Assembly: GCA_038746285.1 (NCBI GenBank) | Contig: JBCDKT010000003.1 | Coordinates: 80,003-144,002, forward strand | Source: Bacteroidota bacterium | GTDB taxonomy: Bacteria > Bacteroidota > Rhodothermia > Rhodothermales > JANQRZ01 | DNA length: 64,000 bases | Direction: 5' to 3' | Shown here: positions 778 through 59,832 of the stretch, piece after piece | Layout: the number at the start of each line of letters is the position of its first letter | How positions within the stretch are numbered: the first letter of the stretch is position 1 | The notes under the pieces: model-generated | What the model was told of the DNA's origin: nothing | Databases searched by the model: none | The model's input: only the letters and a program-made list of their open reading frames with translations | Program-made: the position numbers and the translations under genes

Positions 778-840
778 ATAAATCGGGGGTGAGAAGCAGC
801 GGTGCGAGAGCGCATAAAGTACGCATTGGCCTATTCGGCG

Positions 841-899
841 GGTTAGCGCGGCGGCTGAACTTCAAGCGGAATCCGTGTGGGGGCTGTCCGAGTCGAGGG
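841..899. repeat. Diverged duplicate (relic) of the 3' end of the FAD-oxidoreductase gene; left flank of the ATPase/TOPRIM cassette
   Basis: Hand alignment of 842-892 to 2812-2860 gives about 37 of 51 columns identical with one 2-nt gap. Core is GGAATCCG(T/C)GTGGGG(G/T)CTG..CGAG. The complement of a stop codon (tta 843-845 vs cta 2813-2815) sits at the same aligned position. Confidence 0.55.
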
Positions 900-940: not shown

Positions 941-2113
941 ATGTCCGACTTGCTGCTCGACAGCCTGCTCATCGAGAACTTCCGTGCCTTCAAGCGGCTG
1001 GAGGTGAAGGAGCTTGGCCGGGTCAACCTGATCGTCGGGAAGAACAACGTCGGGAAGACGGCCCTGCTCGAAGCACTCTGGTTGTATGCTGCGCGAGGGG
1101 CGCAGCACGTTCTGGCTGAGGTTGTTCGGCGGCGAGACGAAGTAGCTTTTTTATCTGCGCGGCTTCGTCCTGAGGAGCCTTTTGATTGGACGCAGGCCAT
1201 TTCAAGTCTGCGTTATGGAAGGCCTTCTCCTGCTGAACTACCTGATGTCGGGCAGAACCACGATGCTTACAGCTCGATCGATGAGAGGCAACTTTTCTCC
1301 GTAGGCTCTGCCTATGCTACCTCGACTGCCGTGCATTTCACACTCGAGATGCCCAGGGTAGGATTGAGTATTCACGATCCCGCTTATCAAAAAGAGATGT
1401 GGTTCGGGGCAGTAAATCCCGAATGGTTGGCTGGTCAGAATGAGCGTTACCCTCTCGCGGGAAGCCTAGCGAAAGCACTAGGAGCGCGTCCGCCGCATTC
1501 AATGGTCCCTCACTATTTTGTGCCGTCATCAGGGCTGAGTCTCTCTAAACTGAGTCTCGCCTGGAAGGAGGTTGTGCTAGCAGGCAGAAAGGATGTGGCT
1601 CGGAGGGCAATTCGCAAGATCGACGGTAGTATAAAAGATATAGACTTTGTATCGGCTGCTGACGTATTCGATAGGGAAAGCGATAGAGATATAGAGTTGT
1701 CTCTCATTCCGATATGCCAGCGCGAGAACGAGGTCGTGCCAGTTCCGCTGAGGAGCATGGGAGAGGGTATGGATCGCCTGCTTGGACTGGGTCTTGCTAT
1801 CGTAGTAGCAGATGGAAGAAACGGGGGGATACTGCTGGTAGATGAGATCGAGAACGGACTTCACTACTCGGTGCAGCCGGACATGTGGCGGCTGGTCTTT
1901 GAGACGGCGGCAAAGCTCAACGTGCAGGTTTTCGCCACAACGCACAGCCTCGACTGCATCCGGGCGTTCCAGGCGGTGGCCGAGGAGCACCCGGAGGAGG
2001 GGCGGCTGATCAGCCTGCGGCGGAAGCAGGACGCGCCGGATGAGATCGTAGCCATCGAGTTCGACGAGCAGGGCATGGAATCCATTGTGCGCTCCCACAT
2101 CGAAGTCCGCTGA
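941..2113 (+). CDS. ABC/AAA_21-type ATPase (OLD / AbiLi / AriA-like), 390 aa
   Basis: ORF track 875..2113; preferred start is ATG 941 (MSDLLLDSLLIENFRAFKRLEV...). Walker A GKNNVGKT, signature-like SMGEGMDRLL, Walker B ILLVDEIENGLH, H-loop ATTHS. The central part is visibly less GC-rich than the flanks. Confidence 0.75.
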   Translation: MSDLLLDSLLIENFRAFKRLEVKELGRVNLIVGKNNVGKTALLEALWLYAARGAQHVLAEVVRRRDEVAFLSARLRPEEPFDWTQAISSLRYGRPSPAELPDVGQNHDAYSSIDERQLFSVGSAYATSTAVHFTLEMPRVGLSIHDPAYQKEMWFGAVNPEWLAGQNERYPLAGSLAKALGARPPHSMVPHYFVPSSGLSLSKLSLAWKEVVLAGRKDVARRAIRKIDGSIKDIDFVSAADVFDRESDRDIELSLIPICQRENEVVPVPLRSMGEGMDRLLGLGLAIVVADGRNGGILLVDEIENGLHYSVQPDMWRLVFETAAKLNVQVFATTHSLDCIRAFQAVAEEHPEEGRLISLRRKQDAPDEIVAIEFDEQGMESIVRSHIEVR

Positions 2114-2117
2114 GACG

Positions 2118-2816
2118 ATGGCGCATCGGTTCCGTCTGCTCGTGGAAGGCCAAGACGACTGGCACGTCCTGAGTAACTTGCTGAACGAGCACGGGGTCGA
2201 GGCATGGCGTGTCAGGCCGAGTAGCCGGGAAGACATCGGCGACAAGATCGCGGTCGAGGCAGCGGGAGGGGAAGAAGACGCCAAGAAGGGTGGGGTTGAT
2301 AGGCTGCTTAAGGACCTGGCATTCCAACTCCAGCAGAGCGACCAGGAGCGGGTCGGGATCGTCGTCGATGCTGACGAGAACCTTGCAGCACGGTGGCAAG
2401 CGGTATGCACTCGAATCGGACGTGCAGGCAATGTGGACCTACCGGGGGCACCCGATCCAGCCGGTACGGTCGTCACGCTGGAGCAGCCGGACCGAACGCT
2501 GGTGGTCGGCGTCTGGCTGATGCCGGACAACACAGATGACGGCATGATCGAGGACTTTCTGCGCTTCCTGGTCCCGGAAGGTGACGCTCTGCTGCCTCGT
2601 GCCGAACGCTGCCTTGAAGCCATCCCAGAGAACGAGCGACTCTTCGCGCAGGGAGACGCAGACCACACCTCGAAGGCGCTCATGCATACGTGGCTAGCGT
2701 GGCAAGACGAGCCGGGGCGACCGCTCGGGCAAGCCGTTACGCATCGCTACCTCGATGCTCAAGCGCCCCGTGCGCTGGCTTTCGTCGAGTGGGCGAAGCG
2801 CCTGTTCGGCCGCTAA
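2118..2816 (+). CDS. TOPRIM-like partner protein (DUF3226 / DUF4435 / RloB-like), 232 aa
   Basis: In-frame ATG 2118 within ORF 2085..2816, 4 nt after the ATPase stop. N-terminal FRLLVEGQDD supplies the TOPRIM Glu and GIVVDADEN the DxD motif. The exact Pfam family cannot be assigned without an HMM search. Confidence 0.6.
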   Translation: MAHRFRLLVEGQDDWHVLSNLLNEHGVEAWRVRPSSREDIGDKIAVEAAGGEEDAKKGGVDRLLKDLAFQLQQSDQERVGIVVDADENLAARWQAVCTRIGRAGNVDLPGAPDPAGTVVTLEQPDRTLVVGVWLMPDNTDDGMIEDFLRFLVPEGDALLPRAERCLEAIPENERLFAQGDADHTSKALMHTWLAWQDEPGRPLGQAVTHRYLDAQAPRALAFVEWAKRLFGR

Positions 2817-2870
2817 CGCGGCACTCGAACCTCTGGTGGAATCCGCGTGGGGTCTGCGAGGTAGTCGGGG
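2811..2870. repeat. Right-flank copy of the duplicated segment (the functional 3' end of the FAD-oxidoreductase gene)
   Basis: Partner of 841-899. It encodes the last ~17 codons (DYLADPTRIPPEVRVPR*) of the minus-strand gene 2813..3877. Confidence 0.55.
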
Positions 2871-3877
2871 AGGTGCCGAACGAGGAGGGGAACCGTGAGC
2901 AAGCCCTTCGACCCGAGTCCGCTGAACACCCACACGCGCCGATGGCCCAGCGGCCCGAGGAGCGGGAGCCGGCGCGGCGAGTGGGTGCGCGGAACGGTCA
3001 CCCGGACGCCCGCCCGTGCGCCGAGAATCGCGGCGTCGGCGAGGGCCGGGAGCATCTGCGCTGCCTTCGCCCGCAGCGCTTCGGACTGTGCCCGGTGCGG
3101 CTCAACGTCGTCGAAGGTGTGCTCGTACGAACTGCCGACGATGAGCGCGCTCCCATCCGGCACGACGTAGCCGAAGCCGGAGAGTGCGGGGAGGTCGACG
3201 AGGCCGTCGGGCCGGGCGAGGCGGATCGTCTGGCCTTTGATGCGGTGGAGCGGAAGCGCGCTGAGCGGGGAGAAATGCCGGAACCCGTCGCCCAGAGCAA
3301 GCATGAGGTGGTGAGCGTCGATCCGCTCGCCGGTGACCATCGTCACTGAGACGGCGCGCTCGGTCTCGGTCCAGCCCGTCACGCGCATGCCGGTGCGGAC
3401 CGCCGCCCCGCGCGCCTCGGCCGCCCGGAGCAGCACCGTCACCATCTCGGCGAGATCGACGGACCCACCGCCGGGAACCCACAGCGCACCGTGCGGAGCA
3501 GCGACGTCGGGGTACTTGGCGGCGAGCGTGTCGGGCGAGTGCCAGGCGGCGTGCTCCGGCAGCGCCTCGGCGCGGGTGCGGAAGTGGTGCGCCTGCGCTT
3601 CGTCGCGGGCGGGACGGAGCACGCCGGTGGCGCGGAACAGGTCGGTAGCGCCCGCGAGGGCGAGCGTCTCGTGGAGGGCAGCCAGCGCCTCCTCGAAGCG
3701 CCACGCCGGGTTCGCCCGCTGGCCCATCATCGGGTTGACGAGACCTGCCGCCGCGCCGGATGCGCCCGCCGCCGGTCGCTCGGCTTCGAGGACGGTCACC
3801 GCACCGCCGTGCTCGGCGAGCCACAGCGCCGCCGACGCCCCAGCGAGTCCTGCTCCGACGATCACGGTGCGCAGCAT
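2813..3877 (-). CDS. FAD-dependent oxidoreductase (DAO superfamily)
   Basis: ORF track 354 aa. N-terminal Rossmann dinucleotide motif VIVGAGLAGASAALWLAE. Its stop overlaps the convergent TOPRIM gene stop by 4 nt. Confidence 0.8.
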   Translation of the reverse strand: MLRTVIVGAGLAGASAALWLAEHGGAVTVLEAERPAAGASGAAAGLVNPMMGQRANPAWRFEEALAALHETLALAGATDLFRATGVLRPARDEAQAHHFRTRAEALPEHAAWHSPDTLAAKYPDVAAPHGALWVPGGGSVDLAEMVTVLLRAAEARGAAVRTGMRVTGWTETERAVSVTMVTGERIDAHHLMLALGDGFRHFSPLSALPLHRIKGQTIRLARPDGLVDLPALSGFGYVVPDGSALIVGSSYEHTFDDVEPHRAQSEALRAKAAQMLPALADAAILGARAGVRVTVPRTHSPRRLPLLGPLGHRRVWVFSGLGSKGLLTVPLLVRHLPDYLADPTRIPPEVRVPR

Positions 3878-12923: not shown

Positions 12924-12997
12924 GCGCCGGTAGCTCAGCTGGATAGAGCGTCGCACTACGGATGCGAAGGTCGGGGGTTCGAATCCTCCCCGGCGCG
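12924..12997 (+). tRNA. tRNA-Arg (anticodon ACG)
   Basis: GCGCCGGTAGCTCAGCTGGATAGAGCGTCGCACTACGGATGCGAAGGTCGGGGGTTCGAATCCTCCCCGGCGCG. 7-bp acceptor stem, D-loop AGCTCAGCTGGATAGAGC, anticodon loop CTACGGA, T-loop GGTTCGAATCC. CCA is not encoded. Confidence 0.92.
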
Positions 12998-13004
12998 CAG
13001 CGCA

Positions 13005-14560: not shown

Positions 14561-14633
14561 GTCATCCCGGACCCCGATCCGGGATCCAGAGGATATGCTG
14601 AGCCTGTGGATCCCCGCCTGCGCGGGGATGACG
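14561..14633. repeat. Composite palindromic intergenic repeat, copy 1 (GTCATCCCGG...GGGGATGACG family)
   Basis: GTCATCCCGGACCCCGATCCGGGATCC...GGATCCCCGCCTGCGCGGGGATGACG. Two hairpins (ATCCCGG/CCGGGAT and ATCCCCGC/GCGGGGAT) plus complementary GTCATCC/GGATGAC ends. Also flanked by the 9-bp inverted repeat GCTTTGTTG (14536) / CAACAAAGC (14656). Lies between convergent genes. Confidence 0.8.
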
Positions 14634-14665
14634 GGTAAATGCGCGCAGAGTTTTCCAACAAAGCA

Positions 14666-16843: not shown

Positions 16844-17078
16844 AGCACGAGTGCGATGAATCGAGGTGTCAGGCTCCGCTGGCGTGCTCGACGACCTGGG
16901 CAAGGCGAAGGGCGTCGCTGAGCGCGGGGAGCAGAAGAGAAGAGATGCGCCGTTCAAACCCGGTGCGTACTGTTTTGTTGCATGTCTGCCCTGTGTGCTG
17001 CGCGGCAAGCCGGGCAGGCAGACGCGACGAAGACCCCAGCGCAAGGAAAAGCGCCAGGGTCTTCGTGTTGCCAATCTG

Positions 17079-17448
17079 TGGAGATGCCGGGGGTCGAACC
17101 CGGGTCCGAAACGAGCTACAGTCCAGGCGTCTACATGCGTAGTCCGCGTATTGAGAGTCTTTGCCCATGTGGCGGTGCCCACGAACAGGGCTTCCACACG
17201 AGCGCAGGCTGGTTGGGTTTCACTGCTTCGGCTCAGCCGGAGCCTACGCAGCTAGCTTATCTAAGTCGATGCCTCAGGAAAGGCCGGTAAGCGAGCCAAT
17301 CGGGAGACAGATGGAGGCTTTAAGCCGCCATCGCGTACGAGTAATCGTTCGCAGTTATCAGGTTTCTCAGCGTGGGTCACGGGCGTACTGAGAACCACCC
17401 GACACGCAGCCTGCCGCACGATCGCTCCGTCGAATCCAAAACATCCCC
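17079..17448 (-). ncRNA. ssrA: tmRNA (ssrA)
   Basis: Minus-strand 5' end GGGGATGTTTTGGATTCGACGG and 3' end GGACCCGGGTTCGACCCCCGGCATCTCCA (T-arm, acceptor with G3.U). Tag ORF GCG AAC GAT TAC TCG TAC GCG ATG GCG GCT TAA gives ANDYSYAMAA (about 17320-17352). Confidence 0.88.
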
Positions 17449-28910: not shown

Positions 28911-30293
28911 ATGATCCGTCTGATCTGCTTTCTCACGCTCGCTTTGACTGCTGCTCCTGCTGTAGTGGCACAGGGCGCGCCCGCGGGCGACGAACGCATC
29001 GCTGCCGTCGCCGACTCGCTCGGGACGGGCGACGTGTTCGTCGTCCCGGTCCAGGGGATGATTGACGCGGCGCTCGCCAACTACATCGACCGGGCGCTTG
29101 AAGACGCGGCCGAAGCTGAGGCCGCGCTCGTGCTCTTCGACATCGACACGTTTGGGGGGCTTGTCGATGCCGCCGACCAGATCCGCTCGGCGATCCTCCA
29201 CAGCGAGATCCCGACGGTCGCCTTCATCGACCCGAACGCGGCCAGCGTGGGGGCGCTGATCTCGTACGCCAACGACGTGATCGTGATGGCCCCCGGCGCG
29301 TCGATGGGCGCGGCGACGGTCGTGGACGGGGCGGGGACGAAGGCGTCGGAGAAGATGCAGAGCTACATGCGCGGGCTGATGCGCGCCACGGCCGAGGCGG
29401 GCGGGCGCGACCCCGAGATCGCCGAGGCGATGGTGGACGAGACGCTGGAAGTCGACGGCGTGGTCGAGGAGGGCACGCTCCTCACGCTCTCGGCGAGCGA
29501 GGCCGAGCGCCTCGGCGTCGCCGACGCCGTCCTCGGCACGAAGGACGACGTCCTGGCGGCCCTGGGCGCAGCCGACCGGCCCCGCGTCGAGCACCAGGCC
29601 TCGACGGCCGAGCGGGTGCTCCGCTTCCTCGGAGCCCCGGTCATGGCCTCGATCCTGATGATGATGATGCTAGGCGGGCTGTACTTCGAACTCCAGACGC
29701 CGGGCGTCGGGTTCGCCGGGGCGATGTCGGCCGTCGGGGCAGCGCTGTTCTTCGCGCCGCACTACATGCTCGGCCTCGTGCAGAGCTGGGAGATCGCGCT
29801 CTTCGGCCTCGGGGTGCTGCTGCTTTTGATCGAAGTGTTCGTCATCCCCGGCTTCGGCGTGGCCGGTATCATGGGTCTCCTGCTAACTCTCTTCTCACTT
29901 GGCGCAGCGCTCATCGGCAACGTCGGCCTCCAGTTCCCCTCCGGCGGAGCGATCACCCAGGCCATCCTGACGCTCGCTGGGACGCTCATTCTCGTGATGA
30001 TCTTCGGCTACTCCGTCGGGCGCTACCTGCCGAAGTCGGAGCGGTTCGGGCACCTCGTCCTCGCGCCCGAACTCGGCAGCGCGGCTGGCTACATCGCGGC
30101 CGACTCGGACGACACGCTCCTCGGCCAGGTCGGCGTGGCGCTGACGACGCTGCGCCCGGCCGGCATGGCCGAGATCGACGGGCGGCGCGTAGACGTGGTC
30201 TCGCAGAGCACGTTCGTGCCGCAGGGGGAGCACGTCGAGGTCGTCAGCGTGCGCGGGAGCCGGGTCGAGGTGCGCCCGGCGCGCGCGTCGTAG
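28911..30293 (+). CDS. NfeD-family membrane-bound ClpP-class serine protease (long form)
   Basis: ORF track 460 aa. Signal peptide, ClpP-like VVPVQGMIDAALANYIDRAL...TFGGLVDAA...AASVGALI, 4-5 TM helices, C-terminal OB domain (LRPAGMAEIDGRRVDVVSQ). Confidence 0.8.
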   Translation: MIRLICFLTLALTAAPAVVAQGAPAGDERIAAVADSLGTGDVFVVPVQGMIDAALANYIDRALEDAAEAEAALVLFDIDTFGGLVDAADQIRSAILHSEIPTVAFIDPNAASVGALISYANDVIVMAPGASMGAATVVDGAGTKASEKMQSYMRGLMRATAEAGGRDPEIAEAMVDETLEVDGVVEEGTLLTLSASEAERLGVADAVLGTKDDVLAALGAADRPRVEHQASTAERVLRFLGAPVMASILMMMMLGGLYFELQTPGVGFAGAMSAVGAALFFAPHYMLGLVQSWEIALFGLGVLLLLIEVFVIPGFGVAGIMGLLLTLFSLGAALIGNVGLQFPSGGAITQAILTLAGTLILVMIFGYSVGRYLPKSERFGHLVLAPELGSAAGYIAADSDDTLLGQVGVALTTLRPAGMAEIDGRRVDVVSQSTFVPQGEHVEVVSVRGSRVEVRPARAS

Positions 30294-30336
30294 CTCGGCC
30301 GACTTCCATTCCAACGACTAACGCGCGGCCTTCCCG

Positions 30337-30843
30337 GTGGAATTTCTGATCCCGCTCCTCCTCGTGCTCGTCGGCCTCGGCCTGATCGCGGTCGAGGTCT
30401 ACGTCGTGCCGGGGTTTGGCGCGGTCGGCATCGGGGGCGGGCTGGCGATCGTCGCGGGCGTGGTCTACGCCTTCGTGACGCTGGGGCCGGCGGGCGGCGT
30501 GCTCGCCGCGCTGGGCTCGGTCGGGGCCGGGGCCGGGCTGTTCTACTTCTTCTGGCAGACCGGCGCGTGGGACCGCTTCGTCCTCGCCGCCGACCTGCGG
30601 CGCGACAAAGACGCCGACGCGCGCGAGCACGATACCCGCTCGCGCTACCTCGGCCGCGACGCGGTCGCGGTGACGCCGCTGCGGCCGGGCGGGATCGTCG
30701 AGATCGACGGCGAGCGCGTCGAGGTGCAGACCGAGGGCGAGTTCATCGCCTCGGGCAGCACCGTCCGCGTCGTGGCGATGGACCGGCGGCGCTTCTTCGT
30801 CCGCCTCGCCGACGCCCTGCCTGAGGCTGGGGCGGACCGGTAG
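30337..30843 (+). CDS. NfeD-family protein (short form: membrane + OB domain)
   Basis: ORF track 168 aa (GTG start). TM helices, then TPLRPGGIVEIDGERVEVQTEGEFIASGSTVRVVAMD. Confidence 0.7.
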   Translation: MEFLIPLLLVLVGLGLIAVEVYVVPGFGAVGIGGGLAIVAGVVYAFVTLGPAGGVLAALGSVGAGAGLFYFFWQTGAWDRFVLAADLRRDKDADAREHDTRSRYLGRDAVAVTPLRPGGIVEIDGERVEVQTEGEFIASGSTVRVVAMDRRRFFVRLADALPEAGADR

Positions 30844-33263: not shown

Positions 33264-34949
33264 ATGCCCGACGTCGTCTCCACTCTCGGCACTCCAGCGT
33301 CCGATCACGCGAAGTTCGACGCGCGCGCGGAGCACGCCCGCGCCCTGCTCGGCGAGCTGGAAGCGCACGCCAGCCAGGTCCGGCTCGGCGGCGGGCAGAA
33401 GCGGATCGACCGCGAGCACAGCCGGGGCAAGCTGACCGCCCGCGAGCGCATCGCCGCGCTCGTCGACGAGGGCACCGATTTTATGGAACTCGGCCTCTTC
33501 ACCGGGTGGGGGATGTACGAGGCCGAGGGCGGCTGCCCGTCCGGCGGGACGGTGATGGGGCTGGGGCGCGTCCACGGCCGCCTCTGCGTCCTCGTCGCGA
33601 ATGACGCCACCGTCAAGGCCGGGGCGTGGTTTCCGATCACGGCCAAGAAGAACCTCCGCGCCCAGGAGATCGCCATCGAGAACCGCCTGCCGATCGTCTA
33701 CCTCGTGGACTCGGCCGGCGTCTACCTCCCGATGCAGGACCAGATCTTCCCCGACAAGGAACACTTCGGGCGCATCTTCCGCAACAACGCCCGGATGTCC
33801 TCGATGGGCATCCCGCAGATCGCGGCGATCATGGGGAGCTGCGTCGCGGGCGGGGCCTACCTCCCGATCATGTCTGACGAGGCCCTCATCGTCGACGGCA
33901 CCGGGTCGGTCTTCCTCGCCGGGCCGTTCCTCGTCAAGGCCGCCATCGGCGAGACGACCGACAACGAGACGCTCGGCGGGGCGGCGACGCATTCCGAGAT
34001 CTCGGGCGTCACCGACTACAAGATGCCCGACGACGAGACCTGCCTTGCGACGATCCGCGACCTCGTCTCCCACCTCGGGGCGCGCGCCCGCGCCGGGTTC
34101 GACCGCGCCGAGGCTGTGCCGCCGGCCTTCGCCCCGGCGGAACTCTACGGCGTGATGCCCGAGAGCCGCCAGGTTCCCTACGACGTGCGCGACGTCCTCG
34201 CCCGGATCATCGACGCCGGCAGTTGGACCGAATACAAAGAGCAGTACGGCCAGACGCTCCTCTGCGGCTACGCCCGGATCGACGGGTGGAGCGTCGGCAT
34301 CGTCGCCAGCCAGCGCCTTGTGGTGATGGCGAAGCAGGGCAAGAAGGCGCACACGAACGAGATGCAGGCGGGCGGTGTGATCTACTCCGACTCCGCCGAC
34401 AAGGCCGCGCGGTTCATCATGAACTGCAACCAGAAGAAGATCCCGCTCGTGTTCCTCCAGGACGTGACCGGCTTCATGGTCGGCAACCGGAGCGAGCATG
34501 GGGGCATCATCAAGGACGGCGCGAAGATGGTCAACGCCGTCGCCAACTCCGTCGTCCCGAAGTTCACCGTCATCATCGGCAACTCGTACGGCGCGGGCAA
34601 CTACGCGCTCTGCGGCAAGGCCTACGACCCACGCCTGATCCTGGCGTGGCCGACGGCGCAGATCGCGGTGATGGGCGGCAAGCAGGCGGCGAAGACGCTG
34701 CTCCAGATCGAGATCGGCACGCGCAAGCGGAAGGGGGAGACGGTGTCTGAAGAGGAGCAGGCAGCCCTGCTCGAGGAGATGACGGCGCGCTACGAGGCCC
34801 AGACCTCGCCCTACTACGCCGCGGCCCGGCTGTGGGTGGACGAGATCATCGATCCGGCTGCGACCCGGCAGTGGCTCGCCACCGGCATCGAGATGGCCGA
34901 CCACAACCCGCACGTCCCCCGCTTCAACCCCGGCGTGCTTCAGACGTGA
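33264..34949 (+). CDS. Acyl-CoA carboxylase carboxyltransferase subunit (methylcrotonyl-/propionyl-CoA carboxylase beta-like)
   Basis: ORF track 561 aa. GGGQKRIDREHSRGKLTARERI, ANDATVKAGAW, VYLVDSAG, MGSCVAGGAY, FLQDVTGFMVG. Confidence 0.9.
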   Translation: MPDVVSTLGTPASDHAKFDARAEHARALLGELEAHASQVRLGGGQKRIDREHSRGKLTARERIAALVDEGTDFMELGLFTGWGMYEAEGGCPSGGTVMGLGRVHGRLCVLVANDATVKAGAWFPITAKKNLRAQEIAIENRLPIVYLVDSAGVYLPMQDQIFPDKEHFGRIFRNNARMSSMGIPQIAAIMGSCVAGGAYLPIMSDEALIVDGTGSVFLAGPFLVKAAIGETTDNETLGGAATHSEISGVTDYKMPDDETCLATIRDLVSHLGARARAGFDRAEAVPPAFAPAELYGVMPESRQVPYDVRDVLARIIDAGSWTEYKEQYGQTLLCGYARIDGWSVGIVASQRLVVMAKQGKKAHTNEMQAGGVIYSDSADKAARFIMNCNQKKIPLVFLQDVTGFMVGNRSEHGGIIKDGAKMVNAVANSVVPKFTVIIGNSYGAGNYALCGKAYDPRLILAWPTAQIAVMGGKQAAKTLLQIEIGTRKRKGETVSEEEQAALLEEMTARYEAQTSPYYAAARLWVDEIIDPAATRQWLATGIEMADHNPHVPRFNPGVLQT

Positions 34950-34951
34950 GG
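34873..34951 (+). repeat. 79-bp direct repeat, copy A (functional 3' end of the carboxyltransferase gene)
   Basis: GGCTCGCCACCGGCATCGAGATGGCCGACCACAACCCGCACG...CGCTTCAACCCCGGCGTGCT(T/C)CAGACGTGAGG. 73 of 79 identical to 35516-35594 by hand count. Confidence 0.85.
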
Positions 34952-35017
34952 CTGGTAGACCGAAACTAGTACGCGCCCCGGTCGGTAACCCTGGCAAGAA
35001 CTCAGACGGACCAGATT

Positions 35018-35290
35018 ATGGAGACGCAGTACGTCCTCACGCAGTACCTCGACGCGGCGATGGCAGGAGCCGAGTACGACAAGCTGGACGAAGGCTCTTT
35101 CGGCGGGCGGATCCCGGAATGCCAGGGTGTCGTGGCCTTCGGTGAGACCTTGCGCGTGTGCCAGGAAGAGCTACGCTCGACGCTCGAAGACTGGCTCCTG
35201 GTTGGGCTGAAGCTCGGCCATGCGCTGCCCATCGTCGGCGGCATCGACCTCAACGCGGACCCGACGCATGAGCAGGTGAACCCCGTGTAA
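35018..35290 (+). CDS. hicB: HicB-family (UPF0150-like) antitoxin
   Basis: ORF track 90 aa. ...EYDKLDEGSFGGRIPECQGVVAFGETLRVCQEELRSTLEDWLLVGLKLGHALP matches the HicB N-terminal domain pattern. Confidence 0.68.
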   Translation: METQYVLTQYLDAAMAGAEYDKLDEGSFGGRIPECQGVVAFGETLRVCQEELRSTLEDWLLVGLKLGHALPIVGGIDLNADPTHEQVNPV

Positions 35291-35501
35291 GCGCCGCGTC
35301 TTCGTCAAACGGCTCCGGCGGCTCGGGTTTGAGGGGCCGTTCTCGGGGACCAGGCACCAGTTCATGGTCTACGACCGGCACCGGCTCGCCATCCCGTCGA
35401 ACCAGGAGTATTCCGTTCCGCAGCTTCGGATGATGCTCCGCGAGGTAGAGACGCTGCTTGGGCGGAGGGTGCAAGCGGCAGAGTGGAACAGCCTCGCATA
35501 A
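35280..35501 (+). pseudogene. hicA: HicA/YcfA-like toxin reading frame without a canonical start codon
   Basis: Own translation of the open frame: TPCKRRVFVKRLRRLGFEGPFSGTRHQFMVYDRHRLAIPSNQEYSVPQLRMMLREVETLLGRRVQAAEWNSLA*. There is no ATG/GTG/TTG/CTG before ATG 35364, which would delete the first helix and strand. An upstream TGA sits at 35277-35279. Confidence 0.45.
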
Positions 35502-35515
35502 CCCGGTCCAACGAG

Positions 35516-35594
35516 GGCTCGCCACCGGCATCGAGATGGCCGACCACAACCCGCACGCGGAGCGCTTCAACCCCGGCGTGCTCCAGACGTGAGG
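35516..35594 (+). repeat. 79-bp direct repeat, copy B (orphan copy of the carboxyltransferase 3' end)
   Basis: Encodes ...LATGIEMADHNPHAERFNPGVLQT* in the carboxyltransferase frame, versus ...LATGIEMADHNPHVPRFNPGVLQT* in the intact gene. Confidence 0.85.
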
Positions 35595-35627: not shown

Positions 35628-35945
35628 ATGGATACGTCTGTTGCCTACCCGCACATCGAGGTCGACGAAGCCGGCATCGCGCGCGTCGGAGCAACCCGGC
35701 TAAAGGTGCTCCACCTCGTAGCCGCGCAGCGGGCCTACGGGTGGAGTCCGGCCGAACTGCACTTCCAGTACCCGTCGCTCTCGATGGCGCAGGTGCACGC
35801 GGCGCTCGGCTACTACTGGGACCACCGCGAAGCCCTAGACGCAGCGCTCGATGCAGCGCTGGAGTCGGCAGAACGGGCCCGGCCCGGCCTTAAAGAGCCA
35901 GAAGGGCTCCGCGCCCGGCTGCGTTCGCTCCGAGACGCTTCGTGA
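35628..35945 (+). CDS. DUF433 domain-containing protein (antitoxin-like)
   Basis: ORF track 105 aa. ...GIARVGATRLKVLHLVAAQRAYGWSPAELHFQYPSLSMAQVHAALGYYWDH matches the DUF433 pattern. Confidence 0.72.
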   Translation: MDTSVAYPHIEVDEAGIARVGATRLKVLHLVAAQRAYGWSPAELHFQYPSLSMAQVHAALGYYWDHREALDAALDAALESAERARPGLKEPEGLRARLRSLRDAS

Positions 35946-36200
35946 GTGTCGGGCTGCTCACCGATCACCACGTCCCACGGGCCATCGTAAACGGCCTCCG
36001 GCTTCGCGGGGTGGACGCCGGTCTCCTCCGAGAAGCGGCAGGACGTCAGCGCGCCGGACAGTCGTTCGGTGGTGTGATCTACGCATAACCCACTGCGCGT
36101 TCTCATCGGTGCGTGCGGGGCCGACTTCACGTCGGTCGCGGAGGCGACGATACCAGGGGCGCTGGACGACACCGATCTGTTCCTGCCGCTCTCGCGTTCA
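35942..36200 (+). pseudogene. DUF5615 (PIN-like) toxin remnant, frameshifted and truncated
   Basis: GTG overlaps the DUF433 stop (GTGA). The first frame gives VSVGLLTDHHVPRAIVNGLRLRGVDAGLLREAAGRQ..., ending at TAA 36086-36088 after 48 codons. A second frame continues with ...LRVLIGACGADF.... Full-length family members run about 110 aa. Confidence 0.4.
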
Positions 36201-36332
36201 CCAGCCACCTACATCCTCAGGCGCCCGTCCCGGAACGGTTTAGGCTTCCGAGTCCGTCTGACAGGGCACGACGGAGGCGGCGGGGACGTTGGTATATTTC
36301 GCGCTCTCCCCCCGACGGCATCCTCGACTCTC

Positions 36333-37565
36333 ATGGCTAGCACTACCCCGGCCGCGCGCGGCCCGCGTCTCAACCTCCCGATCTTCCTGCTCGCGCTCGT
36401 GGGCCTGATGATCGTCGTCCACCTCTGGGTCCAGAGCCAGGCGAACTTCGCCTTCGGCTGCACCGGCGCGGGCGACACCCAGAGCGGCAGCGGCTGCGCC
36501 GACGTCACCTCGAGCGCCTACAGCACCTTCCTCGGCGTCGACGTGCTCGTCTGGGGCGGGCTGTTCTACCTCACCGTGGCCGCGCTCCGCTTCGGCGCGG
36601 CCCTCCTGAAGGCGCCGACGAGTGAGACGCTGCGCAAGGCCAGCTTCTGGGCGGTCAGCGCCGGGTTCGCGTTCGCGCTCTACCTCGTCAGCGTGCAGAC
36701 TTTCCTGCTGACGCAGTTCTGCGCGCTCTGCCTCTTCTCCTCGCTCACGACGGCGACCCTCTTCGCGCTCCACCTCGTCGAGCGGGCGAAGGGGCCAGGG
36801 CGGGACGTGGTGGTGAGCACGGCGCTGCGGCCCTACGCGCTCGGCCTCGTCGCGCTCGTCGTGCTCGCCGGGGCCGACGTGGCGCTCGCGCCGGAGCCCG
36901 AGGCGGCGGCCTCGACGTTCACGCCGGGCGTGCAGCGCGTCTCGGCCGAGACCGCCGAGTGCCACTACGACTACGAAACGCCGCGCTTCCCCGTCTTCGA
37001 CCAGTTGATCTCGATGGACACGCCCTACGAGGGCAGCGCCGACGCGCCGGTCCGCATCATGAAGATCTTCGACCCCAACTGCCCGCACTGCAAGACGCTC
37101 CACGACGCGCTCGAAACCATCCTCCCGCAGATCGAGGACCAGGCGAAGGTCTACTACAAGCCCTACGCCATCTGGGACTACTCCGTCCCGCAGTCGCAGG
37201 CGCTTTACCTCGCCGCTGAGGAGGACAAGTTCGCCGAGATGCTGAACCTCCAGTTCGAGAACCAGCGGCCCGGCATCGGGCTCTCGGTGAGCCAACTCGC
37301 GGACGCCTCCCGGCGGATCGGGCTCGACTCCGACCGGGTCCGGCAAGAGCTGAACAACCGGAAGTACGTGGGCCTGATCCAGGAGGAGAACCAGATCATC
37401 TCGCAGGGCGGCATCCGCAGCGTGCCGAAGCTCGTGATCGAGGGCCGGGTGCTGGCCAACACGCGCACGACCTGGACGGCGGACTGCATCGGCCGGCTCG
37501 TGGAGCACGCGGCCCAGGAGAAACGGCAGGCGGCGGAGACGGCGTCCGCGTCCGTACCCGAATAG
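36333..37565 (+). CDS. Vitamin K epoxide reductase (VKOR) domain fused to a DsbA-like thioredoxin domain
   Basis: ORF track 410 aa. VKOR TM region with CTGAGDTQSGSGC and CALC. C-terminal thioredoxin fold with CPHC. Confidence 0.8.
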   Translation: MASTTPAARGPRLNLPIFLLALVGLMIVVHLWVQSQANFAFGCTGAGDTQSGSGCADVTSSAYSTFLGVDVLVWGGLFYLTVAALRFGAALLKAPTSETLRKASFWAVSAGFAFALYLVSVQTFLLTQFCALCLFSSLTTATLFALHLVERAKGPGRDVVVSTALRPYALGLVALVVLAGADVALAPEPEAAASTFTPGVQRVSAETAECHYDYETPRFPVFDQLISMDTPYEGSADAPVRIMKIFDPNCPHCKTLHDALETILPQIEDQAKVYYKPYAIWDYSVPQSQALYLAAEEDKFAEMLNLQFENQRPGIGLSVSQLADASRRIGLDSDRVRQELNNRKYVGLIQEENQIISQGGIRSVPKLVIEGRVLANTRTTWTADCIGRLVEHAAQEKRQAAETASASVPE

Positions 37566-53941: not shown

Positions 53942-54013
53942 GTCATCCCGGCCTCCGAGCCGGGACCCACCGGCTGGCTCCGCCTGTGGGTCCCCGCCTG
54001 CGCGGGGATGACG
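53942..54013. repeat. Composite palindromic intergenic repeat, copy 2
   Basis: GTCATCCCGGCCTCCGAGCCGGGACCCACC...GGGTCCCCGCCTGCGCGGGGATGACG, in the alaS / NPP divergent intergenic region. Confidence 0.8.
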
Positions 54014-54065
54014 AGTATCGGGGGTTGGAGCTTGGAATCGCACACACTTATAAAAACCACCCCTT

Positions 54066-56414: not shown

Positions 56415-56487
56415 GTCATCCCGGCCCCCGAGCCGGGACCCACTGGCTAGCAAATCTTCTGGGTCCTCGCCTGCGCGGGGATTGACG
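56415..56487. repeat. Composite palindromic intergenic repeat, copy 3
   Basis: GTCATCCCGGCCCCCGAGCCGGGACCCACTGG...GGGTCCTCGCCTGCGCGGGGATTGACG, between the DUF305 and LVIVD genes. Confidence 0.8.
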
Positions 56488-56510
56488 AGTACCAAGACCC
56501 GAACGCCGCC

Positions 56511-58538: not shown

Positions 58539-59061
58539 AGACGCCTTCGCGCTCGCGCCAGCGCGTGACGTGGGCGGTGTGGTGCCGCCCGTGCCACGCG
58601 TACATCCCCGTCGCGTAGTCGAGCCGCATCGTCTGCTCCGCCGCCGGGTGGTAGAACGCCCGCCCGAAGTCCTGCGGCCCGAGCGAGTGGAGAAGCGCCG
58701 TCCAGCGTGCGTGCAGCGCGTCGAGGAACGCGAGGCTGACCTCGACCGGCAGGCTGTAGTCGCCGAGTTCGGCCCAGGCCCCTTCGTCGTAGGGCCGGAT
58801 CGTCGGCGTCTCTTCGGTGAGGGTGAGCTTGACACGGGCGAGGGCGTTCAGGTGGCTGTCAGCCGTGTGGTGGACGACCTGCCGGATGGTCCAGCCGCCG
58901 GGGCGGTACGGCGTGTCGAGGTCGGTCTCGCTCAGCCCATCCACGGCCGCGCGCATCGCTGCCGGGAGCGACGCGATCTGTCCGATCCAGCGGTCGAGGT
59001 CGGCGTCGGGGATGCTGGCAGGCGGGTCGTATGTGCCGATGGGATAGCGGAGGTCGTTCAT
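58537..59061 (-). CDS. DinB/YfiT-family metal-dependent hydrolase / thiol transferase-like protein
   Basis: ORF track 174 aa. YPIGTY..., GWTIRQVVHHTADSHLNA, MYAWHGRHHTAHV (the His triad typical of YfiT/DinB_2). Confidence 0.8.
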   Translation of the reverse strand: MNDLRYPIGTYDPPASIPDADLDRWIGQIASLPAAMRAAVDGLSETDLDTPYRPGGWTIRQVVHHTADSHLNALARVKLTLTEETPTIRPYDEGAWAELGDYSLPVEVSLAFLDALHARWTALLHSLGPQDFGRAFYHPAAEQTMRLDYATGMYAWHGRHHTAHVTRWREREGV

Positions 59062-59615
59062 GGCTGTGGCGGTGGGCCGGCTAGGTCGTCAAACAGAGAG
59101 ACCGTCTGCATGCCGAGAGCCTCGTCGAACGCGCTGAGCCAGCGGCGAATGTAGGCGGCGTCGAGCGCCGGCTGGCGAACGAGGATGCCGCGCACGTCCT
59201 CGACATCGCGAGGCCGGCCGGCCACGAGCTTGAGGACGATAAGGTCCTCGGCTGAGGCGAAGCGGACCCTCTCGCCGCCGATCTCAGCCGTGTTCGCGCG
59301 CTCGATAGCTTCGCGCTCGTAGCCTCCGAAAGAGAATACAAAGTCCACCTGGCGCTCGCCCTCTACGTCACTGCAGGGAAGTACGAGCGTCTCCGCGACA
59401 AACGCTTGCGGTTCGACGAGCGGTCGCAGAGCCAGCGTTTCGACAACCCGGAGCACGTCGGGAAGCCGGTCGGGGCCGACGCCGAGCGTTACGTCCACGT
59501 CGCGCGTCAGGCGGGGTTCGCCGTAGAGGAGCACGGCCTGCCCGCCGATCACCATGTAGGGCACGCCCGCCGCATCTAGCTCGCGGGCGAGCGCGGCAAG
59601 GAGTTTCTCAAACAT
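59058..59615 (-). CDS. Nucleotidyltransferase-fold protein (minimal NTase, DUF2204/DUF6036-like)
   Basis: In-frame ATG 59615 of ORF 59058..59771 (185 aa). NTase signature VIGGQAVLLYGEPRLTRDVDV. Its stop overlaps the dinB-like start by 4 nt and its start overlaps the upstream small ORF by 8 nt. Confidence 0.6.
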   Translation of the reverse strand: MFEKLLAALARELDAAGVPYMVIGGQAVLLYGEPRLTRDVDVTLGVGPDRLPDVLRVVETLALRPLVEPQAFVAETLVLPCSDVEGERQVDFVFSFGGYEREAIERANTAEIGGERVRFASAEDLIVLKLVAGRPRDVEDVRGILVRQPALDAAYIRRWLSAFDEALGMQTVSLFDDLAGPPPQP

Positions 59616-59832
59616 TCCGAAGCGCAGCGAGCGCGTGCGCCAGCCGGACCTTGACCTCGACCCCGTCGAGCGGGTCCTCGCGCCGCCAGCGGCCCAGCGC
59701 GACGGCTTCGGCGCGGAGCGCCTCCACAATCCGGAGGTTGCGTGCGAAGTCGGGCCGGTCAGCAGCCGCACGGCGGAGCGCGGCGACGCGGTCGAAATCG
59801 GGGCGGCGTCCGATAGGCGAGTTCATGTCCAC
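59608..59832 (-). CDS. Small Arg-rich helical protein (74 aa), possible partner of the NTase
   Basis: ORF track 74 aa. Translationally coupled to the NTase gene. Contains a twice-repeated RPDF motif. No family recognised, and a GC-rich shadow ORF cannot be excluded. Confidence 0.4.
   Translation of the reverse strand: MDMNSPIGRRPDFDRVAALRRAAADRPDFARNLRIVEALRAEAVALGRWRREDPLDGVEVKVRLAHALAALRNV

Follow-up and report, generated by a model that had tools for sequence, protein, structure and literature searches.

How does a cassette without any gene for its own movement come to lie between two copies of the end of a housekeeping gene? This question is raised by a 64,000-nt stretch of DNA (contig JBCDKT010000003.1 of assembly GCA_038746285.1, positions 80,003 to 144,002; hereafter the window), which derives from a Rhodothermales-type bacterium and has a GC content of 69%. 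A compact hicB-hicA toxin-antitoxin (TA) cassette, hicBA, is located immediately behind an intact acyl-CoA carboxylase carboxyltransferase (CT) gene, and the tail of this gene recurs as an orphan copy beyond the cassette. A second cassette with the same layout, which harbors a candidate defence system, is located behind an FAD-dependent oxidoreductase (DAO) gene of the same window. Relatives without the cassettes carry a single copy of the respective gene end. In our judgement the chances are about even that a small cassette bringing its own copy of the tail was integrated by an integrase acting in trans or by host recombination. The positions of all features are given in Table 1.

The hicBA cassette and its flanking direct repeat

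The two copies of the CT gene end were designated c1 (attached to the gene) and c2 (orphan). Pairwise alignment revealed a direct repeat with 73 of 79 nt identical, exactly the coordinates and the identity that had been reported in a preliminary description of this DNA made from its letters alone. The copies agree over 42 nt, differ at five consecutive positions (TCCCC in c1, CGGAG in c2), agree over 20 nt, differ once (T/C), and agree over the last 11 nt; the preliminary description had recognized the same pattern, but counted one base differently (a 43-bp block and a 6-nt cluster with five substitutions). Likeness ends at both borders of the repeat and does not extend into the flanks, which speaks against the larger segmental duplication that had been named as a contrary outcome. 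The hand count is now accompanied by alignment statistics: comparison of the 64-kb window with itself by BLAST returned the c1/c2 pair with E=2e-23, and according to a binomial estimate about 2e-23 such pairs are expected by chance in the window.

The orphan c2 reads in the CT frame as ...LATGIEMADHNPHAERFNPGVLQT*, as had been stated before. The tail of c1, ...HVPRFNPGVLQT*, is similar to native tails of relatives, for example HVPTFNPGVLQT in the metagenomic relative L165. Five of the six differences between c1 and c2 are consecutive, a clustering with P ~2e-5 under random placement; the orphan is therefore not merely a copy that has accumulated point mutations. Judged from this pattern, only about two events would separate c1 from c2 in the window. 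A local template for the 5-nt mismatch cluster was looked for and none was found. The orphan-specific changes within 35555-35586 are mutually complementary (GGAGC and GCTCC), so that a 5-bp stem is possible; its fold energy was not significant, and the complementarity may be a coincidence or the result of templated mutation. Folding of c1, c2, and the junctions as DNA gave z-scores near 0, and promoter and terminator scans returned nothing relevant to the repeats. A third, degenerate copy of the CT tail, suspected beyond the downstream DUF433 gene pair, was rejected with a local score of 11 as compared to a shuffle mean of 12.

The interval that separates the copies (34952-35515, 564 nt) consists of a leader, the hicB-like gene, the hicA-like gene, and a trailer, and of nothing else; the preliminary description, which had listed only these two reading frames in about 565 bp, was right in this respect, but had missed a nonsense mutation in hicA. 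The HicB-like protein matched the UPF0150 profile PF21748 with 91.4 bits (cut-off 27.3; E=3e-26) and the structure of Thermus TTHA0281 (PDB 2DSY) with E=6e-13. Its 631 homologues are spread widely across phyla. A second Pfam domain was not detected in the HicB-like protein, which thus has no C-terminal DNA-binding domain of the ribbon-helix-helix or helix-turn-helix type as present in canonical HicB.

The partner gene required closer examination. The HicA-like sequence of the window reached 16.5 bits against the HicA_toxin profile, below the cut-off of 27. HicA_toxin (PF07927) was the sole Pfam match of all five HicA-like family members, in each case below the gathering score (best E=2.4e-5). 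A single-sequence structure model of low confidence (predicted local distance difference test score, pLDDT, 64) showed the topology H-E-E-H, as compared to the alpha-beta-beta-beta-alpha order of the double-stranded-RNA-binding-like fold expected of a HicA toxin; Foldseek placed it closest to 1WHZ (probability 0.99, TM 0.64), followed by 6G26_F, 6HPB_A, and 5YRZ_B, with weak E-values for this low-confidence model. A profile search of the family against PDB sequences gave no meaningful match. The hicB-hicA pairing is also found in the related loci L083, L167, and L171. From these matches the partner of hicB is a predicted divergent HicA.

Codon 4 of hicA is TGA in the window (35277-35279); four relatives in which the gene is intact (L083, L084, L167, L171) have TGG, encoding Trp. 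No start codon follows the TGA before the conserved His, and the reading frame is thus not intact. The same G-to-A change leads to an exchange of Asp for Asn in the overlapping hicB frame. Since the remaining hicA frame is intact and dN/dS (the ratio of nonsynonymous to synonymous divergence) is ~0.12 in comparison with L083, inactivation probably took place late in the history of hicA. In the window genome the cassette is in decay, with the toxin gene stopped at codon 4 and the antitoxin gene intact.

Empty and occupied sites at the CT gene end

Both empty and occupied CT sites were found among relatives. A second copy of the CT tail is absent from all 80 genome relatives, and in the closest of them (L001) the CT gene is followed by the VKOR-thioredoxin gene (VKOR). 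Closer metagenomic relatives also have a single CT tail and then VKOR, with a gap of 52 nt in L085 and of 121 nt in L165 and L166; within 1.5 kb, no second copy occurs in L085, L165, L166, or L001. Together with 76 further loci, these hicBA-less relatives are single-copy, and the case named beforehand as contrary to an insertion, namely relatives that lack hicBA and yet carry both copies, was not encountered. The empty site had been predicted to show one CT-tail copy followed by the DUF433 gene. The single copy was found as predicted, but the neighbour is VKOR; the DUF433 gene is lineage-specific and absent from all relatives examined (L001, L082-L085, L165, L166). A weak second tail-like match in L008 failed on nucleotide alignment and was rejected. 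At the empty site of L165 (1300-1335), the CT stop codon is followed by a GC-rich hairpin (GGGGCGACCATCGGTCGCCCC), probably a terminator, which has no equivalent after c1 or c2 in the window.

The occupied state was observed in a related lineage represented by three independent Logan contigs (L082-L084). Each of them contains the full architecture in one contig, in the order CT, a leader homologous to that of the window, hicB, an intact hicA of 76 aa, a 40-nt orphan tail (36/40 identical), and VKOR. Its HicB is 87% identical to that of the window at the protein level, and the left junction is the same.

As sources of the repeat, chance likeness, a segmental duplication that has nothing to do with the cassette, and an artefact of metagenome assembly had to be considered. 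The window was taken from a metagenome-assembled genome, and one Logan contig from this organism (L081), which carries the c2 variant, starts inside c2 and hence breaks within the repeat. The Logan assembly graph uses k=31, and the break is accounted for by the 42-nt perfect repeat in such a graph. An assembly artefact is refuted by the architecture itself, which recurs in another lineage in three contigs obtained independently. The E-value of the c1/c2 pair, the exact end of the likeness at the repeat borders, and the single-copy empty sites also speak against this group of explanations. The probability left for this group of explanations is negligible, and chance or artefact can be regarded as excluded.

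The number of insertions was addressed by comparing L083 with its sister L085 (VKOR 84% identical at the protein level, CT tail region 91% at the nucleotide level), of which the former is occupied and the latter empty. The gene-attached tail of L083 is identical to the empty L085 at 40 of 40 positions, its orphan at 36 of 40. By synonymous distance, the window is slightly nearer to L083 than to L165 (CT 0.35 vs 0.44, VKOR 0.50 vs 0.62); the tail states CAC and CTC put it with L165. Synonymous divergence (dS) was 0.53 for hicB and 1.3-1.6 for hicA as compared to 0.35-0.71 for host genes. The divergence of the cassette is not below that of the host, and a recent independent acquisition from one source is thus unsupported. 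Two observations speak against a single old insertion: each orphan carries the lineage-specific states of its own genome at four sites (CAC, CTy, ACG in the window), and the orphan tail is far better conserved than the non-coding leader (63% between lineages). To account for the tail pattern, it remains that the copies underwent gene conversion, that the cassette was excised and re-integrated repeatedly, or that insertions took place independently. Furthermore, the empty state of the sister L085 would be explained equally well if the cassette had been lost precisely, through recombination of the repeats with each other. In the comparison with L083 (1196-1426), the proportion of synonymous differences (pS) was higher for hicA (0.62-0.66) than for hicB (0.38) and host genes (0.28-0.46), with hicA under purifying selection; the hicBA cassette may be a mosaic.

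These tail patterns bear on an explanation that needs no site-specific recombinase. About 79 bp of host DNA in the window, or 40 bp in the L083 lineage, would have been copied during repair upon insertion, and the orphan would then have been changed by one complex and one point mutation. A precedent exists in small gene units without mobility genes that are flanked by long, variable direct target duplications of >30 bp, some of them overlapping a gene 3' end (Furuta et al. 2010; PMC2853133). Within each genome both tail copies share lineage-specific states, the length of the repeat varies between lineages (79 nt vs 40 nt), and the L083 tail attached to the gene, rather than the orphan, is the one matching L085 in full; all this is in agreement with a long target duplication. 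However, the two lineages share their left junction, which is unexpected from two independent non-specific events, and the second cassette does not fit, as its gene-attached tail is foreign, its orphan is native, and its repeat lies partly within the DUF3226 gene (see below). We regard an insertion accompanied by long duplication of the target as possible, but rather unlikely.

The second cassette and the origin of the gene ends

The second cassette spans about 887-2799 (~1.9 kb). Its genes PDC-M38A and PDC-M38B are adjacent and both match PADLOC models, which makes them a candidate defence system. An ATPase/TOPRIM cassette flanked in the same manner had been noted before at 841-2870; the flanked layout was found as described, and the site is empty in three relatives, but the second gene was identified as DUF3226 (PDC-M38B), and the analysis gave no support for the name TOPRIM. 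The two copies of the DAO tail (829-886 and 2800-2856) aligned with a local score of 26, compared with a mean of 9.9, a standard deviation of 1.4, and a maximum of 18 for shuffled sequences. The base composition of the cassette is foreign, with a GC content of 59% and a GC content at third codon positions (GC3) of 0.63-0.72 for its genes; PDC-M38A has a GC content of 56% and a GC3 of 63%, as compared to 69% GC for the window and a GC3 of 0.87-0.96 for neighbouring host genes. Among the empty sites, the DAO gene is followed directly by DeoC in L172; in L174 and L175 a homologous downstream gene starts directly behind it and runs off the contig.

The orphan DAO tail and the DNA downstream of it are co-linear with the native tail, the post-stop sequence, the intergenic region, and the DeoC start of L175. 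The orphan ends with LEVQPPR*, a type of tail that the closest relatives have (P0242, P0244, P0245). The tail attached to the gene ends with EVRVPR*, the type of more distant relatives (P0246, P0250, P0257), and only in its last 6 codons does the DAO protein depart from the close-relative type. With a foreign-type tail on the gene and a native-type orphan, the second cassette came with a gene end of its own. The repeat reaches 13-17 nt into the end of the DUF3226 gene. The DUF3226 Pfam profile covers residues 6-230 of 232; hence, the part of the repeat within this gene is cassette DNA and not duplicated host DNA. By this comparison of tail types it is demonstrated in outline that the incoming DNA brought along a substitute for the end of the gene and that the recombination took place within the tail. 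Elements targeting gene 3' ends show this attL/attR pattern.

An insertion of the attL/attR type had been proposed for hicBA in the preliminary description. The proposal gains support from the single-copy empty relatives and from the second cassette, which has the same layout and a foreign-type tail attached to the gene. We infer that the hicBA cassette, too, arrived with its own copy of the CT tail. The type II TA cassette of 564 bp, which has no mobility gene, would have been integrated immediately behind the CT gene by recombination within the last ~40-80 bases of this gene. Most likely, the cassette came with a gene-end copy of its own, which would have recombined with the chromosomal one, leaving one copy on the intact CT gene (attL-like) and the orphan copy beyond the cassette (attR-like). 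The reaction could have been catalyzed by an integrase encoded elsewhere or by host recombination acting on short homology.

A footprint of this kind may also be left by a larger integrative element that has decayed. An island with an integrase would have integrated at the gene end, and deletions would have left the hicBA or the PDC-M38 pair together with attL and attR. This corresponds to the definition of cis-mobilizable elements (CIMEs), which have lost the genes for integration and transfer but have kept attL and attR (Guedon et al. 2017; PMC5704250). Decay is evident at the locus from the hicA nonsense mutation, the DUF5615-like pseudogene, and the shortened orphan of L083. TA and defence genes are common cargo of islands. 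However, both cassettes are very compact and free of junk DNA (for hicBA a leader of 66 nt and a trailer of 14 nt), and the same compact form occurs in the second lineage. Two clean reductions to exactly one operon within one 64-kb window would be improbable, and no related element bearing an integrase was found among the loci of hicBA relatives, viral contigs, and plasmid and phage records. Such a decayed element is an unlikely source of the two cassettes.

Recombinase domains were scanned for in 24 open reading frames (ORFs) of the 64-kb window, of which 10 were picked as unnameable on reading; the remainder were read as housekeeping genes and not all scanned. Neither the cassettes nor the 24 ORFs contained a recombinase domain. 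Each cassette holds only two cargo genes, which confirms the earlier statement that hicBA has no recombinase.

Several observations weigh against integration of a cassette with its own gene end. The recombinase scan covered a subset of ORFs and a part of the genome (64 kb). Searches of viral contigs with the CT-tail core, the DAO-tail core, HicB, and DUF3226 returned nothing useful, the whole segment from repeat to repeat including the cassette had no match in plasmid and phage records, and neither an integrase nor an element bearing attP nor a circular form was found in the searches made. Flanking repeats are lacking at L167 and L171, two further hicBA loci from the same family; the signature is thus not a property of the hicBA cassette family, and the idea that it is intrinsic to this family was rejected. 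At the CT gene, the copy attached to the gene is the native-looking one, and the orphan carries the lineage's own states at four sites; a true duplication of the target in the host, or gene conversion, would account for this no less well than a tail brought by the cassette. Finally, the distinction between foreign and native tails of the second cassette is based on ~21 nt and 6 codons.

A more general idea is that the two cassettes represent a class of "gene-tail cassettes", minimal and devoid of a recombinase. Such a cassette would consist of a single TA or defence operon and a decoy 3' end of a housekeeping gene, and would pass from one related genome to another, being excised and re-integrated via this short homology, by means of a dedicated integrase acting in trans or of host recombination. 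We consider the existence of such a class quite improbable. If real, it would amount to an integron-like traffic of cassettes aimed at gene ends, and it would explain the well-conserved orphan, the junctions shared by two lineages, and the patchy distribution of occupied and empty sites. Many defence and TA genes reside at variable hotspots without a visible mobile element, and their route to these sites is a question of practical interest. The window provides two small and clean cases with defined junctions and matching empty sites, one of them with an incoming replacement gene end; if excision or circular forms were shown, a simple route for single defence operons between related genomes would be at hand. 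As it stands, a new mechanism is not established, and the case is a well-documented example of a footprint whose type is known.

Neighbouring features and known systems

Table 1. Features of the two cassettes and their surroundings; positions refer to the window.
Feature	Position	Strand	Basis or remark
Orphan DAO tail and native post-stop sequence, attR-like	829-886	-	reads ...RIPLEVQPPR*, as in closest relatives
PDC-M38A ATPase (AAA_15/AAA_21, AbiLi-like), first gene	941-2113	+	PADLOC PDLC04611 E=1e-85; Pfam AAA_15, AAA_21
PDC-M38B (DUF3226), second gene	2118-2816	+	PADLOC PDLC04624 E=2e-48; Pfam DUF3226 E=1e-60
Gene-attached DAO tail, attL-like	2800-2856	-	ends ...EVRVPR*, tail type of more distant relatives
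DAO (FAD-dependent oxidoreductase), target gene	2813-3877	-	Pfam DAO E=1e-51
Acyl-CoA carboxylase carboxyltransferase (CT), target gene, intact	33264-34949	+	Pfam Carboxyl_trans E=3e-151
Repeat copy c1, attL-like	34873-34951	+	last 76 nt of CT gene including stop codon, plus 2 nt
Cassette leader, non-coding, 66 nt	34952-35017	+	homologous to L083 leader, 63% identical with indels
hicB-like antitoxin gene, 90 aa	35018-35290	+	Pfam UPF0150 PF21748
hicA-like toxin gene, pseudogene	35268-35501	+	ATG at 35268, overlaps hicB by 23 nt
Spacer from hicA stop to orphan c2, 14 nt	35502-35515	+	3 nt in L083
Repeat copy c2, orphan CT tail, attR-like	35516-35594	+	frame ends ...HAERFNPGVLQT*
DUF433 gene, antitoxin-like half of second TA pair	35628-35945	+	Pfam DUF433 E=1e-7
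Remnant of DUF5615-like (PIN-like) partner, frameshifted, internally deleted	35942-36240	+	three-frame reading
VKOR-thioredoxin gene	36333-37565	+	Pfam; adjoins CT directly in empty-site L001, L085, L165, L166

The CT protein is 76-88% identical to its counterparts in Rhodothermales relatives. Look-ups of exact proteins gave no match for HicB and CT of the window, and for DUF433 nothing but one short contig from this organism. A second TA pair directly follows the orphan c2, its DUF433 gene intact and its DUF5615-like gene broken; it lacks a flanking tail copy of its own. The remnant of the partner, which is putatively DUF5615-like, contains a 48-aa ORF without a Pfam match. From its distribution, the DUF433 and DUF5615-like pair (35628 to ~36240) is a separate, lineage-specific insertion and not an ancestral neighbour.

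Elsewhere in the window, an intergenic element of ~77 nt with nested palindromes (GTCATCCCGG...CCGGGA...GGGGATGAC) occurs at 14561-14637, 53942-54017, and 56415-56491. The copies are 80-86% mutually identical and belong to no Rfam family; the element looks like a repetitive extragenic palindromic (REP) sequence or a repeat of the miniature inverted-repeat transposable element (MITE) type. The only Rfam matches in the window are a tmRNA gene (17076-17448, minus strand) and a tRNA-Arg gene (12924-12998). Genes of these two kinds are classic integration targets; comparison of the window with itself revealed no island or repeat beside either of them. A DUF6036/DUF2204 nucleotidyltransferase gene of TA or abortive-infection type, with a weak AbiEii match, is located at 59058-59771 (minus strand) and adjoins a gene which we presume to be DinB-like. 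Another 79-nt repeat (30119-30197 and 30648-30726, 77% identical) was rejected as an insertion signature, as it represents paralogous domains of adjacent NfeD-family genes (28911-30843).

As to cargo, the hicBA pair resembles HicAB type II TA systems in the UPF0150 fold of the HicB-like protein, in the small HicA-like protein with its conserved Gly...His motif, and in the overlap of two genes with the same direction. It differs in the order, hicB preceding hicA, in a HicB of 90 aa without DNA-binding domain, and in a HicA-like protein that falls below the Pfam threshold and whose gene is inactivated in the window genome.

As to the footprint, insertion of restriction-modification units with long target duplication was reportedly described by Nobusato et al. 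in 2000. These insertions resemble the present cassettes in that a small selfish or defence unit without transposase or integrase is flanked by direct repeats of >30 bp and variable length, present as a single copy in the genome with the empty site, and some of the published repeats overlap a gene 3' end. Measured against the description by Furuta et al. (2010), inserts of <20 kb without mobility genes between repeats of >30 bp are found here as well (564 bp and ~1.9 kb; repeats of 79, 58, and 40 nt), and the empty sites are single-copy (CT in L085, L165, L166, and L001; DAO in L172, L174, and L175). The hicBA data are also compatible with both copies being derived from the host, but the second cassette departs from this, its gene-attached end being of foreign type, and is thus no plain target duplication. 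Further differences are the cargo, hicBA and PDC-M38 instead of restriction-modification genes, and the host, a Rhodothermales bacterium.

CIMEs (PMC5704250) share with the cassettes att repeats that include the target gene's end, a restored target gene, and the lack of genes for integration and transfer; the DUF433 pair adjoining the orphan tail would be in line with tandem accretion. They differ in that no parent integrative and conjugative or integrative and mobilizable element and no cognate integrase are known for this site, and the cassettes, of 0.56 and 1.9 kb and with one operon each, are much smaller. Integrative islands and prophages, which use the 3' ends of tRNA, tmRNA, and protein genes and carry the replacement end in attP, differ by an integrase beside the att site and by phage or island genes, which the cassettes do not contain. 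They resemble the cassettes in their presence/absence polymorphism among relatives and, for the second cassette, in a target gene whose end was replaced and whose native end was displaced as an orphan.

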